This document shows positions 1 to 6,000 of a DNA stretch of 9,353 nucleotides, piece by piece. Location: IMG/VR virus record IMGVR_UViG_2534681738_000015; one strand, given 5' to 3'. A program made the position numbers. Source of the stretch: a virus (taxonomy: Duplodnaviria; Heunggongvirae; Uroviricota; Caudoviricetes). Within the stretch, counting starts at the first letter, position 1. Each line of letters begins with the position of its first letter.

Positions 1-3000
1 TTACCTAGCAGTCAATGGTCACAATCTTCGATTGCCATTTATATATGTAAAAAGCGGTTTCAGGAACGCTGAATATATCGGCATAAGAAACTGGCTTGCT
101 GGCATTCGCATCAAAGGAGAGTGATATGACCACTATAACCGATAAGAAACAGTATCCCAGCGAGCAATTTCTTAATGAGCTGATCACCAACATGGAGTTT
201 GCTGCAAGGGCACCAGTTGAAGTCGTGAGAGCGATGGCAGCAGAGCTACAGAAGCGGCGCGAAGCTGATAGTGCAGAACCAGTTGCTTATATTTTCAAAC
301 ATCCGGCCGGGAAATTATTCTGGGCTTTAACGGATGAAAGCAATAAAGAGCAAGCGGACGTTATTCCTGTTTATGCTGCCGCGCCTGCGTCGGTTGTGCC
401 GGATAATGCATCAGAGCCTCTTGCTTATGCTTACAAAGAGCTTACGCCTGAGATTATGCGCAACCATTTAGCTGTATTCGAGCGATATGGAATAGCCCCA
501 AACGATAGCACTACCACAATTCAGGCACTGCGAATCGCGCTGGATGGTATAGAGCGGAGCGACGCCATGCTTCAGGGTAAAGGAGGGGGATATGGCTATT
601 GCCGCAAGTTACACCATGCATCTCTACTGTGATTGTCGCCAGTGTACAAATGGTAAATATCAAACGCCAGATTTCGGTGAGTATATCGGTACGTCATGGG
701 CTGGCTGTGCAAAAGAGGCGCGCAAGGATGGCTGGCGAATAAACAAAGACAAAACGCGTGCTTTTGCGCCAGGGCATAAAATTTTGAGGAGCAACAAAGG
801 AGAGTGATGTGCCTACATTATTCAGAAAAGAATATCCGCGAAAAAGTAGAGCGACAGAATTTTTGTTTCTCATTCTGTTTATCGTGTTGATGACACCGAT
901 ATCCCCGCTAATTTTTGTCTGGGCAATCGGGAAAATAATTGAGCTAGTTATTGAGTTGTATAACGACGTGGTATGGGCGTCGTTCAACACACTGCACAAT
1001 AAAATTAACCCATATAAGGAAAACTGAAATGGCAACTTTGCAGGAATTAATCGACCTGACGCCAGAACAGGAAAAAGCGTGGAATCGTCTTGTGAAGGCT
1101 GTAAAGGATTTCAGGGCAGCCGGAGGAAAGTTTTATAGTGTCCTAGACACGCTGAGCGCATACAACGGCGAGCACGTTGCCAGCATTGATAACGATAAGG
1201 GCTACCACACTGCAAGCGTCTATATGCCTAGCATTGATGCGCCTGGGTTAACCAGTTGGGCTGATGATTGGCACGGCATCACGCTGAAAGATGGCGTTGA
1301 AGTGGATAAGGACTAACACATGACAACGTTCACCGACAAAGAAATGATTAAAGAAATCAAAGAGCGAATCGGCAGCCTGGACGTGCGAGATAATATTGAG
1401 CGCCGTGCTTATGAAATTGCGTTGACTGCATTGACCACTGAACCATTCGCCACTATCGACACAGTGGGAATTGAGCTCGTTAAATATGGTTGTAACACGT
1501 TTATTTGTCCCGACAATTCGATGGAGCCGGGAAATGTACCACTATATATCGGCCTGCCACGAATTGATCCAGCAAGCCAGACTGCCAAGCTGTCATTCCA
1601 GGAATGGTTGTCAGAACAAAAAGAAAAAATAGACGTTGATTGCGGATGTGTAAGCATCGAAACGCTTACGCACTGGATGAAATCCGCTTATGAGGCTGGT
1701 AACTCTCCGGTAACTCCGGATAGTTGGATAAGCTGTAGTGATCGAATGCCTGAAAAGGGCCAGAACGTGCTTATTTCGGTGAATTTCGATAGCTCTCTGG
1801 TTGAACCGCTAATATGCTCCGCACGCTATACCGGAAGCACCTTTCGGCGCGGAGATGCAACGATTAAGCCGGGTAATGGTATTGAGCAAGCAACTCACTG
1901 GATGCCGCTACCAGAACCGCCGCAGGAGGTTAACCGTGGCTAACCTGCAACTTGGTCAAAGGTGAATAAGAATCCTCGCACTCGCGGGGATTTCTTTTAT
2001 CTGAACTCGCTACGGCGAGCTTGAGAGGTTAAAACGATGAAAAATAATGTAATGAAAAATGGAACTATCGACAGCCAGGCTCTGTTGAAAATGGTGAATG
2101 AAGCGCGGAGACTGTGCGGTGAAAAAGAAGTACGCAACAACGACTTCATTGCACGCATCAAAGATGAACTTGATGGGGGGGGGTTACGAAATTTTCGTAA
2201 CCCCCATGGATAAGAAAAAAGGCGGTGCGGATCAGGTTGTTATTGTGATGACCTATAAACAAGCGCTTCGGGTTGCCGCTCGTGAATCTAAATCCGTCCG
2301 TCGTTCGCTGGTCGATCAACTGGAGTCAATGCAACAGCAACTGCAACAAAAAATCACCTCGAAACATTCGACTAACGGCCTTGAGGAATTCCGTAAAGCA
2401 CGGGCGCTGAAAATGACCGTCGATACAATGAAAGACCTTTTCGGCTTCCTCCCCAACCTTGCCCCTGAAGCTAAACAAGTCGTTGCCGCCAGCCTGGTTA
2501 ATCCCGTTGTAGGCGCTAACGTAATCCCGCTACCGATGATTAATGAACATTACTATTCGGCGTCAGAAGTTGGAGCAAAACTCAAAATATCCGCTAACAA
2601 GGTTGGTCGCATTGCCAATACCTACATGCTCAAAACCGAACAATACGGGAAATGGTTCATCGACAAATCCCCGTATTCGGATAAGCAGGTAGAAAGCTTC
2701 CGATACAATAATCGGGGAGTACGGAAGATTGAAGAAATCCTGGACGCGGAGAACAACGCAGAATTCGGAACCTGATATCCTCCACTCTCCGACGCCGCCA
2801 GAATGACGGCGCGGTGGTTAAGCATGAGGCGAAATTTCTGCCGGGCGGTATTTTGTTGAGAGATGAGATACGTCAACTTCTCTTTCCGCTTTTTCAAGGC
2901 TCCATGCCGTCTGGAGACGAATCCATGAAGACGGAGTTCCCCCCAGGACAGCAGCGAGACGAACAGCCATTTCAGGAGATATTGTCGCATTACCTGAAAC

Positions 3001-6000
3001 CAGTCGCTGAACAGTGGAAGGCGCGACATCAAGCGCTCTTGCCAGTTCCCTGATTCCAATATTCTGATCTTCCAGAATATCAGCAATAATTTCTCCAGGA
3101 TGAGGGGGGGTAAACATCGCCATTAGTGGTAATCCTCGTAGTTAAACGAAGCGGATCTGGAGTTTTTCCCTGTAGCACGGGCGAATTTTTTCAACGTTGC
3201 AAATGATGGCCTTATTTACACTCAATGGTTAATTCTTTCCTGTTAAATCCCTGTTCCTTTAAAATGTCTTTATATCCATTTTTACATAGGGCATTGGCTT
3301 TATCATAGCATACTCCCCATGGTGTAGCGGCACCACAGGCAATGATGTACTGTTCCTTTTCATCTCCGCGATTTATTTTCGTAGTGGTAGTGCATCCTGA
3401 TGTTGCCATGCAGAAAATTATCAAATAAAAGAACCTTGCTATGATGTTCATTATCGGATCTCTAATAGGTGCTGCAAGTGACACTATTCCCATACCTGGA
3501 GCAGTTTGTTAGTGTGGCACTTCATATGCCATGCAGATTAGTTCCGGGCGCGAATCTCAGAGCGAACCTGTGAAATGGAGTGCCCTTTGCCTAGGTTCTC
3601 ACGAATAGCGTCGAGTGGCGGCGCGGCTGAGTGTATTAACCACGCTTCCATTGCTTTGTCGCGTTCATTCAGTGCACGAAGCCCTTCACGAATAACTTCG
3701 CTTTCTGAAGCGTATGCACCGGAAGCCACACGGGCGCGCACCATGTCAGCCATTTCGTTGGTTAATGTAATGCTGAATTGTTGGGTTGTACGCATGTTAA
3801 ACCTCACTGAGTAGGATAGAACACTATTCGATGATAGCACGCCACTTGTTGACGACAACACATATCCGGGATTATATTCTTCGCACGGTCGAGTTGACCG
3901 TCGGGATTCGAACCCCGGATAGAAACCGCGACAGAGACACGCCGCGAGCGTGTTTTTTATTGTCGTATGCACGCGCACATCTGAATTATGGTGGGGCGTA
4001 TAGGGGAGCTGAAAAGCTCGCCGGTTGGTTTCCCGGTAGTTCGAACCCTGTACGTCTCACCACCCGATGATTCGAACCTAACGGTGGTGATAGTTTAGAA
4101 ACCACTCGAGGGCGTCATAATGACAACTCAAGTTTCTGTTGAAACACTCTCCACGATTACTTACAAGCAGATCCCCGTTATCACTACCGAACTTTTGGCG
4201 CACCTTTACGGCACAGAAGCTATTCGTATTCGCCAGAATCACCACGAAAACAAAGGTCGTTTCATTGAGGAAAAACACTTCTTCAAACTTGAAGGTGAAA
4301 CTTTACGTGAGTTCAAGCACAGAGTAGCTTTTAACTACTCTGTGAAAATCGCCCGTAACGTTCGCTCCCTCATCCTCTGGACAGAACGCGGCGCAGCCCG
4401 TCACGCAAAAATGCTCGAAACCGATCGGGCGTGGGAAGTGTTCGAAAAACTGGAAGACTGCTATTTCAGTCAAAAAATCCCAGAACAACTTCAGCTTCCA
4501 GAATCAACACTATCTATCAACTACCCTCTATCGTGGTTTTCAGAGCACCACCCCTACTCCATGATGAGCTATGTTGATCGAAAAACTCTTAACCTGGACG
4601 TTTCTGTACTCTTCGACATGCCAAGCCCAACCATGCGTATCCTCAACGAACTACACAGCAAGGGCTATAACGTCGATGCGGCTGTCGCTGAATTTAACGC
4701 CTTCAAACATCTGACGGAAGAAATGCGCCGCACGCTACAGGATATTTCAAGACTGTCAGATCGAAATTCCCGAAAAGGCTTCTCGTTAAGCCTGTAACTT
4801 CCCCTACCATCCCCGACATCCCGTCGGGGTTTTCATATCTGGAGACAAAAATTTGAAACAGATCGCTTTCTACAGGCGTTCTGGAAGGCCCGGTGCCTTC
4901 CGTGGGTTAAAAGAACGCGTCACCTGGATGATTCAGTCTCGTGGTCGTCCTGTTACTGGCAGTGAAATAGCAGAGAAATTTGGTGTTTCACTTTGCGAGT
5001 TCAACAAGGTAGCTCGCGGCCTGACAAAGGGCAGTAAGGTTGTGAAAATAAAGGCTTCAGAACCATTCACCACAGACACCGGAATCGTTGATCGCTTTTT
5101 CTCCCTCGAATCAAATCCTCGTCGTGACACACCTCGCTCACGCAATGCCGTTCCTCCATTCAGTCGCAGAAGCCGTGAACACGCAGCAAAAAACTGTCGC
5201 GAGGAATACGTGCAAAAGGCCGAACGCCGTCGCCGACTGATTAAAGCAGGACTTTACATTGATGAGTTTGAAAACGCGCTATGACGAAAAAATACACTCT
5301 CATTTACGCAGATCCCCCCTGGACATTCCGAGACAAAGCAACCGATGGTCAACGCGGTGCAAGTTTTAAATATCCGGTCATGAGTCTTCTGGATATCTGC
5401 CGCCTCCCGGTATGGGAACTGGCAGCCGATAATTGCCTGTTGGCTATGTGGTGGGTGCCTACACAACCACTTGAAGCATTGAAGGTTGTAGAAGCGTGGG
5501 GCTTTCGTCTGGTGACGATGAAAGGATTAACCTGGAACAAATGCGGGAAAAGACAGACCGACAAGCTGGTCATGGGTATGGGTAGCACCACTCGCGCTAA
5601 CAGCGAAGACTGCCTTTTTGCAGTGAAAGGAAATCTGCCTGAACGCATTAACGCCGGAATAATCCAGTCATTCACTGCACCGCGCCTTGATCACTCCCGC
5701 AAGCCGGATATGGCGCGAGAAAAACTTGTGCAACTTCTTGGCGATGTTCCCCGGATAGAACTGTTCGCCCGTCACACCTCGCATGGATTTGATGTCTGGG
5801 GTAACCAATGCGGAACACCATCCATTGAGATGGTTCCGGGTATTGTTAAATTTCTGGAGAAAACCAATGAGCGAAAAAACGACGTTGACAAAGGCATCAC
5901 CAGTTGAATTAAGGCAGTGCCTGGAAATCGCAAATCAACTTGCCAGAAGTGGAATACGCTTTGTTCCGATCCCGATCACAGCAGATACAGAACTTCATCT

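Follow-up and report, generated by a model that had tools for sequence, protein, structure and literature searches.

The DNA analyzed here, referred to as the window (9,353 nucleotides of IMG/VR virus record IMGVR_UViG_2534681738_000015, a member of the Caudoviricetes), contains a minus-strand cassette in which two antitoxin-type genes, parD and higA, bracket a gene for a small lipoprotein. Sequence comparison matches the window to argW-integrated Stx2a prophages of Escherichia coli O157:H7, and a 1501-bp query taken from it (window 2600-4100) has perfect matches (100% identity) in phages PA2, VT2phi_272, and vB_EcoP_phi346 and in numerous chromosomes of O157 strains. The window corresponds to the early-left prophage arm, in which a DUF551 gene and a truncated anti-repressor gene are followed by the cassette, an ORF6N anti-repressor gene, an MT-A70 methylase gene, xis/int, tRNA-Arg(CCU), and a second integrase gene. 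Both genes that flank the cassette lie on the plus strand, and the cassette therefore runs opposite to both neighboring operons, as a first-pass annotation of this DNA had noted. The same annotation had described the order parD-like, lipoprotein, and higA-like without an intact toxin, and this is confirmed by the map of open reading frames (ORFs) together with family cut-offs. Three minus-strand ORFs are present, one of 85 amino acids, one that stops at position 3212 and could start at either 3493 or 3451, and one of 101 amino acids, and the cassette contains no intact toxin gene. The features of the region are collected in Table 1.

Table 1. Features of the parD-lipoprotein-higA cassette and the adjoining region, in window coordinates.
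Feature	Position	Strand	Basis
Stable hairpin after higA, likely transcript 3' end	2789-2814	minus	z = -2.7; 0 of 200 shuffles fold as well
higA, intact orphan HigA-family helix-turn-helix (HTH) antitoxin, 101 amino acids	2818-3123	minus	TIGR02607
higB 3' remnant, NYEDYH and stop (7 codons, ~22 nucleotides)	3123-3145	minus	Contiguous identity with intact higB-higA of JNEC-KY208 and FDAARGOS_944
3' remnant (last 22 codons) of a third, Xre-type HTH antitoxin gene	3142-3209	minus	93.8% identity to the end of an HTH gene in 31 E. coli genomes
Lipoprotein gene, 79 amino acids	3212-3451	minus	Signal peptide, lipobox A-T-S-G-C, Thr at +2, family alignment, dN/dS, AlphaFold model
3' remnant of a second, BamE-like lipoprotein gene, last 16 codons, TNCSRYGNSVTCSTY and stop	3467-3514	minus	Alignment with L007
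parE 5' remnant, MAYEVPH and stop	3509-3532	minus	Alignment with intact parDE of ML775
parD, intact orphan ParD-family ribbon-helix-helix (RHH) antitoxin, 85 amino acids	3538-3795	minus	TIGR02606, PF03693, phrog_6494
Promoter-like site of the cassette (P_parD): TTGTCG, 16-nucleotide spacer, TG-extended TATCAT	3831-3858	minus	9 of 12 consensus matches
14-nucleotide near-palindrome TGTTGTCGTCAACA over the -35 boxes of the divergent P_parD and P_isrK	3847-3860		0.09 matches expected by chance
isrK RNA	3885-3958	plus	Rfam, 53 bits (gathering score 50)
C4 antisense RNA	3984-4067	plus	Rfam, 70.1 bits (gathering score 45)
ORF6N anti-repressor gene	4120-4797	plus	ORF6N, 71 bits; phrog_1760 anti-repressor

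Both antitoxins belong to the families first proposed for them, since they pass the curated cut-offs in profile searches. The parD product scores 53.4 bits against TIGR02606 (cut-off, 46.2) and 32.7 bits against the Pfam family ParD_antitoxin, PF03693 (cut-off, 21), and the higA product scores 87.2 bits against TIGR02607 (cut-off, 47.7). Relatives with intact modules, for which a search of homologous loci had been proposed, were also found, with intact parDE of the window type in 328 of 5426 complete E. coli genomes and intact higBA of the window type in 22 of the same set. These relatives allow the origin of each part of the cassette to be traced.

On the parD side, E. coli O103 strain ML775 and hundreds of other strains carry an intact parD-parE pair with 86 to 87% identity to window 3860-3519, a stretch that comprises the promoter, parD, and the first five codons of parE. 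The ParE of ML775, which matches Pfam ParE_toxin at 3.2e-10, begins MTYEVIIT, and the homology in the window is confined to ATGGCATATGAAGT and stops at approximately position 3519, so that directly downstream of parD only these five codons of the toxin gene are present. This parE remnant had not been recorded by the first-pass annotation. When ParD is compared with the protein from intact parDE, its N-terminal 48 codons show no nonsynonymous and eight synonymous changes, and its C-terminal, toxin-binding half differs at 12 of 37 residues from the ParE-paired form.

On the higA side, strain JNEC-KY208 matches the window at 97.6% identity to either side of the cassette and carries an intact higB-higA pair adjoining the same isrK/C4 noncoding region and ORF6N gene. 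Its HigB matches PF05015 at 1.4e-21, and its HigA differs from that of the window by one amino acid. Identity to JNEC-KY208 picks up again at window position 3145, and the short higB tail beyond it still provides higA with a GAGGA ribosome-binding site and with the TAATG sequence in which stop and start codons overlap. Upstream of higA, neither a HigB toxin gene with its own promoter nor homology to the higBA promoter of JNEC-KY208 was found. The whole of 3212-3123 had been read at first as a 30-codon HigB remnant, and this assignment is rejected here, as the ORF is a chimera in which only the last 22 or so nucleotides come from higB and the rest is the end of an Xre-type antitoxin gene. The translation of the latter part, PSFATLKKFARATGK, aligns to the antitoxin of strain 2012C-4502 (L005), where an Xre-type HTH antitoxin and a Gp49/RelE-type toxin fill the slot held by the cassette; the partner in other E. 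coli is likewise a Gp49/RelE-type toxin. Through a 1-nucleotide deletion in an A-run, the frame of the Xre-type remnant runs on into the higB tail, which gives the appearance of one 30-codon ORF, and a copy of the cassette in O22:H8 strain 154 (L035) has kept the extra A and thus the intact A-run.

Between these two sides lies material related to P22-like phages. The closest protein relatives of the lipoprotein, at 81 to 82% identity, occupy the sieA/immI slot of such phages. In two of them (L007 and L008), the homologue follows a BamE-like lipoprotein gene between the tailspike gene and gp16, and in a third (L009), it directly follows an Arc/Mnt-type RHH gene with a 4-nucleotide overlap and is convergent with gp16. 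The upstream lipoprotein of L007, whose BamE match is below the Pfam cut-off (E = 3.4e-4), ends TNCSKYGNNVTCSTY and stop, and this end aligns with the TNCSRYGNSVTCSTY remnant that precedes the lipoprotein gene in the window. Because the 16-codon tail of the upstream gene was retained, the lipoprotein gene must have arrived without a promoter of its own. Among E. coli genomes, the lipoprotein segment (~3514-3212) occurs in no other context. The homologue and a BamE-like lipoprotein are adjacent in P22-like phages (L007 5538-6240), in Buttiauxella (L010/L011 4001-5088), and in Fulvimonas (L028 4001-4640), and the BamE-like and four-cysteine lipoproteins are suggested to be a pair that phages captured together.

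Read from these alignments, the region is composed of four segments with at least three recombination joints, at which the debris of four genes (parE, the BamE-like lipoprotein gene, the Xre-type antitoxin gene, and higB) is recognizable. The slot itself lies beside the isrK-C4-ant anti-repressor region of lambdoid Stx prophages, and comparison with the intact relatives shows that its ancestral occupant was higB-higA. The same comparison shows that seven codons are all that is left of higB, the rest of which was replaced together with the higBA promoter, in order, by the parDE promoter with parD and five parE codons; part of an operon of two lipoprotein genes from P22-like phages, lacking its promoter and consisting of 16 codons of the first gene and the whole of the second; and 22 codons of the Xre-type gene. 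The joints are plainly accidental. The first-pass proposal that a toxin had been replaced by an inserted cargo gene, with orphan RHH and HTH regulators left behind, is thereby supported by the intact higBA of JNEC-KY208, the intact parDE of the 87%-identical relative, and the truncated toxin ends at the joints. The accompanying picture of a single toxin slot between two antitoxins captures the replacement and is too simple for the number of joints and donor genes involved. We consider it probable that recombination assembled the locus as a patchwork within a toxin-antitoxin cassette slot of very high variability and that the locus is, at the same time, a ParD-autoregulated operon that carries the lipoprotein as its payload.

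A comparison with the parent systems illustrates what has been kept and what has been lost. With parDE (RK2 ParDE and the Caulobacter CC2985-type, TIGR02606), the cassette shares a ParD-family RHH protein, a promoter and ribosome-binding region that matches intact prophage parDE, and the antitoxin-first order, whereas its ParE is cut to five homologous codons, a lipoprotein gene stands in the toxin position, and no addiction or toxin activity is possible. With the toxin-first higBA (PF05015 with TIGR02607), it shares the nearly unchanged HigA, the stop-start overlap with its ribosome-binding site, and the slot, whereas HigB is reduced to seven codons and the higBA promoter and operator are deleted. 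Transcription of higA must come from upstream read-through. With both toxins gone, addiction and abortive infection are no longer possible functions of the locus.

The toxin-less cassette was found in ~42 of the 5426 complete E. coli genomes and in ~45 Stx phage records, and all of these copies are at least 99% identical except the O22:H8 copy, at 97.7%. In that strain (154), the cassette sits in the nin region of a different phage backbone, where parD and the lipoprotein gene differ at 1 to 2 of ~580 nucleotides and the adjacent RNA region differs by 7%. The cassette has thus spread recently by recombination, without long-term evolutionary conservation. Strain JNEC-KY177 (L036 1818-2818) provides a further case, in which higA was orphaned independently at a different joint that leaves only DYH and the stop codon of HigB, and an intact pair of Gp49-type toxin and HTH antitoxin abuts higA. 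This independent event implies that replacement upstream of higA is recurrent in the slot.

A cassette this young, with 99 to 100% identity over ~87 copies, means that intact ORFs prove little, and it could be argued that the locus is an undecayed, nonfunctional by-product of recombination, none of whose proteins adds to the fitness of phage or host. The A-run in the Xre-type remnant has already mutated, and orphan antitoxins are extremely common in E. coli, with 73,201 occurrences in 950 genomes (PMC10790755). We regard neutral debris of this kind as unlikely, since purifying selection on the lipoprotein family is clear and its members recur in phages, since parD, the lipoprotein gene, and higA are free of frameshifts and stop codons in the more divergent copy, and since a second phage backbone has acquired the cassette.

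The lipoprotein gene is AT-rich, as had been noted at first (GC content, 0.37 versus 0.47 for the window), and its start can be narrowed down. As 3514-3467 is the 3' end of another lipoprotein gene in a different frame, the true start is predicted to be the ATG at 3451, which gives a protein of 79 amino acids. Of the two starts initially considered, 3451 therefore stands, and 3493 is rejected along with 3484, the start chosen by PGAP, because this stretch belongs to the other gene. The corresponding RefSeq protein, WP_000049984.1, is a 90-amino-acid PGAP model with a GTG start at 3484 inside the remnant of the neighboring gene. Given the family alignment and the source locus, both of which indicate ATG 3451, the PGAP start is probably wrong.

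The protein begins with a signal peptide and lipobox, MNIIARFFYLIIFCMATSG-C, for which homologues show VSGC, LAGC, and similar sequences, and the lipobox cysteine (Cys20) is invariant across 44 family sequences. The mature domain of 59 to 60 amino acids has four conserved cysteines, and the family as a whole, all of whose members are small, follows the pattern of a lipobox and four further cysteines, CG...W..CY..A...CP.GY....GFNRKEL.I.C. The residue after the lipobox cysteine bears on outer-membrane sorting (the +2 rule), and the threonine found at this position suggests that the lipoprotein is sorted to the outer membrane. Relative to the L007 homologue, the ratio of nonsynonymous to synonymous substitution rates (dN/dS) is 0.19 over the full gene and falls to 0.11 in the mature part; relative to the L009 homologue, synonymous sites are saturated and dN is 0.12. 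These values show a genuine gene that is maintained by purifying selection. When 1.84 billion cluster representatives were searched with a profile, 267 relatives were returned at E values of 1e-3 or below, 37 of them at 1e-10 or below; the family occurs in Buttiauxella, Pseudomonas, Xanthomonadales, and Acetobacteraceae, among others. The lipoprotein is a member of a widespread, unnamed proteobacterial four-cysteine family that is found repeatedly in phages.

A confident AlphaFold2 model built from the 44 sequences (predicted local distance difference test score, 88) shows a beta-beta-alpha-beta-beta fold, that is, a beta-hairpin, a helix, and a second beta-hairpin. Structure searches of the PDB and BFVD gave no informative match other than another uncharacterized phage lipoprotein, and no named family was matched in Pfam (nothing below E = 0.16), NCBIfam, or PADLOC, with PHROGs returning only two families of unknown function. 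Weak YgdI/YgdR matches were obtained for 8 of the 44 family members (best E value, 5.8e-4; the matched region is not reported) and probably reflect the signal peptide.

The genomic context of the homologues was considered next to that of the cassette. Two homologues (L025 and L030) lie immediately 3' of cI/Xre-like repressor genes, two others (L014 and L031) adjoin phage structural genes, and those in two Acetobacteraceae genomes come after an HTH gene; overall, several family members are found in prophages or directly downstream of repressor-type genes. Among 25 genomes surveyed for conserved neighbors of the family, only other lipoproteins recur, in Buttiauxella and Fulvimonas, and no ParD or HigA partner stands beside a lipoprotein homologue elsewhere. 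The first-pass annotation had offered, as one option, an unrecognized three-gene module, which in its strict form would be a co-evolved unit with ParD and HigA as dedicated regulators of the lipoprotein and three genes that work only together. Its appeal is that the three genes appear to form one operon, that the cassette moved as a unit into two phage backbones, that the L009 homologue is translationally coupled to an RHH gene, and that the Acetobacteraceae homologues follow an HTH gene. Such a module is nevertheless highly improbable in our view. The order parD-lipoprotein-higA was not found in divergent loci and is confined to one lineage with at least 97.7% identity. In addition, the joints hold the debris of four unrelated genes, the RHH protein of L009 is of the Arc/Mnt type and not ParD, the direct source arrangement (L007/L008) has a second lipoprotein upstream and no regulator, and the higBA promoter that contained the operator region of HigA has been deleted.

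The most likely mechanism is that the patchwork is expressed as a simple operon with a captured payload. The region of P_parD recurs almost unchanged ahead of the intact parDE in ML775, and the promoter-like site was inherited from parDE. It is the sole promoter-like site on the minus strand; most of 3796-4119, which had first been counted as a promoter region of the cassette, belongs instead to the plus-strand isrK and C4 RNAs of the neighboring anti-repressor operon. No terminators were found inside the cassette on the minus strand, and no RNA structure above that of shuffled sequences was detected in the parD-lipoprotein or lipoprotein-higA intervals; a hairpin at 3169-3181 is terminator-like on the plus strand only and within chance expectation. 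The stable hairpin after higA is kept in two relatives (L002 and L005) and is common to those with other toxin-antitoxin cassettes in the slot. As the lipoprotein gene is promoter-less and no terminator-like structure lies between the genes, the parDE promoter would drive a single parD-lipoprotein-higA transcript in lysogens, ending at this conserved hairpin. ParD proteins are autorepressors, as established for RK2 ParD. By analogy with characterized parDE systems, and given that the site at 3858-3831 is conserved with intact parDE, the ParD of the cassette would repress its own promoter and so maintain a steady, low level of expression in the lysogen.

The payload of this operon would be the lipoprotein, with a disulfide-stabilized domain of ~60 amino acids and a probable anchor in the outer membrane. 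Its site of action is most likely the envelope, and superinfection exclusion or receptor masking would be the leading guess, because its relatives are found repeatedly in lysogen-expressed moron positions of phages. The immI region of P22 has the order mnt, arc, ant, and sieA, the last being an exclusion gene expressed in the lysogen. The closest homologues of the lipoprotein occupy this P22 slot, one of them after an Arc/Mnt-type RHH gene, and in the window too an RHH gene followed by a lipoprotein gene diverges from an anti-repressor operon; the cassette differs in that its RHH protein is of the ParD family and not Mnt/Arc, its lipoprotein is unrelated in sequence to SieA, and its juxtaposition with ant results from recent recombination. 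Like Cor (phi80/N15), Llp (T5), and Bor (lambda), which are phage lipoproteins of superinfection exclusion or lysogenic conversion, the product of the cassette is a small lipoprotein carried by a prophage in moron position, and its export and lipid anchoring are predicted. Sequence and profile comparisons with Cor, Llp, and Bor gave no similarity, and the common ground is positional (the sieA slot and the position after repressors). The moron-like label first given to the cassette is reasonable.

Several observations weigh against this interpretation. The P_parD candidate matches only 9 of 12 consensus positions, a level at which chance alone would give 2.0 sites in the region scanned. Many members of the lipoprotein family occur in ordinary chromosomal contexts without conserved neighbors, and the lack of a Pfam, NCBIfam, or PADLOC match or an informative structural neighbor leaves the proposed function of the lipoprotein unsupported from that side. 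Finally, both orphan antitoxins are fully intact. In the interpretation favored here, the ability of ParD and HigA to bind toxins would be a relic that may be of use in trans; alternatively, the two proteins may have been selected for a role of their own.

Such a role could be that of an anti-addiction or anti-defense decoy, in which ParD and HigA are kept to neutralize the ParE and HigB of other prophages, plasmids, host defense, or incoming elements and the lipoprotein is an unrelated passenger. Two orphan antitoxins, ParD and HigA, were reported in Stx phages phi346 and phi349 (PMC12502783, 2025), whose authors raised this idea and left the role open. The cassette in those phages is the same as that described here, with phi346 identical over the whole 1501-bp query; that paper mentions only the two orphans and covers neither the remnants of the toxins and of the third antitoxin nor the source of the lipoprotein or the intact relatives. 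Decoy function would fit two antitoxin ORFs that remain intact without an adjacent toxin, a HigA that is one residue removed from that of a working higBA pair and has been retained through two independent truncations of higB, and the frequency of matching parDE in E. coli prophages, which makes encounters plausible. Against this, cassette-bearing genomes almost never carry a matching toxin: within the sensitivity of megablast, their best parDE match covers parD only (37 records) and their higBA match covers higA only. The divergence of the toxin-binding part of ParD makes cross-neutralization uncertain, DefenseFinder does not recognize the ParD and HigA proteins as anti-defense, and no classic antitoxin is known to have been verified in such a use. 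With matching toxin genes generally lacking from the cassette genomes, action on resident toxins appears unlikely, and action on incoming or host toxins is possible. Overall, we hold the decoy explanation to be a tentative one, less probable than the patchwork operon.

The plus-strand neighbors of the cassette introduce a further consideration. A promoter-like site, P_isrK, lies at 3849-3878, with a predicted isrK start at ~3885, and its -35 box overlaps that of P_parD. Together, isrK, C4, and the ORF6N anti-repressor gene form a control unit like P1 immI and the Gifsy-1 isrK-anrP region, divergent from the cassette. The region 3830-4070 was also considered as a site of tRNA genes on account of tRNA-like repeated GGTTCGAA motifs; this was rejected, as ARAGORN predicted none and Rfam identified isrK and C4 on the plus strand, which explain the tRNA-like look of the region.

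Over the overlapping -35 boxes lies the near-palindrome TGTTGTCGTCAACA, which was spotted by eye and then checked by motif search; an inverted-repeat search of the promoter region with 6-nucleotide seeds found nothing. The same 14-mer occurs at the 5' edge of parDE in ML775 (L003) and of the unrelated Gp49-HTH pair in 2012C-4502 (L005), and it may be a candidate operator or a recombination or cassette boundary. If it were an operator, it could be speculated that the patchwork now serves as an accessory of phage immunity, that orphan ParD binds 3847-3860 and controls both the isrK-C4-anti-repressor operon and the lipoprotein operon in the manner of P22 Mnt/Arc, that the lipoprotein, as an outer-membrane protein of a new family, keeps out further phages, perhaps through masking of the BAM complex, the receptor of short-tailed Stx phages, and that HigA acts as a decoy for incoming HigB. 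We consider this combined scheme very unlikely.

Some further observations concern the remainder of the prophage arm. Convergent with higA is a second anti-repressor gene in decay, an ORF at window 2098-2775 (plus strand) whose match to the anti-repressor family phrog_1726 is limited to the C-terminal two-thirds and which RefSeq lists as a pseudogene with a frameshift. The MT-A70 methyltransferase gene (5281-5907, plus strand) is intact in the window, and the copy in WG5::PA2 is split by IS1203 (L001 10682-12621). Beyond the tRNA-Arg(CCU) attachment site (8102-8176, plus strand) lies another tyrosine integrase gene (8302-9321, plus strand), different from the first, which encodes Arm-DNA-bind_3, Phage_int_M, and Phage_integrase domains and whose position is held by dsdC in WG5::PA2. 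A second integrase gene after tRNA-Arg(CCU) points to tandem integrative elements at argW.

In conclusion, the locus is a well-resolved case of decayed toxin-antitoxin modules, orphan antitoxins, and a phage moron lipoprotein; it does not represent a new kind of system and has been described in part before. It provides a clean and datable example of toxin-antitoxin decay in phage genomes, in which toxins are lost by cassette replacement, antitoxins and promoter outlast the toxins, and the promoter is reusable for a captured cargo gene. For annotation, it follows that genes labeled ParD or HigA in Stx2a phages should not be taken as evidence of a working toxin-antitoxin system. If exclusion turned out to be the function of the lipoprotein family, this would be relevant to the interplay between other phages and the Stx2a prophages of high-virulence O157 lineages.

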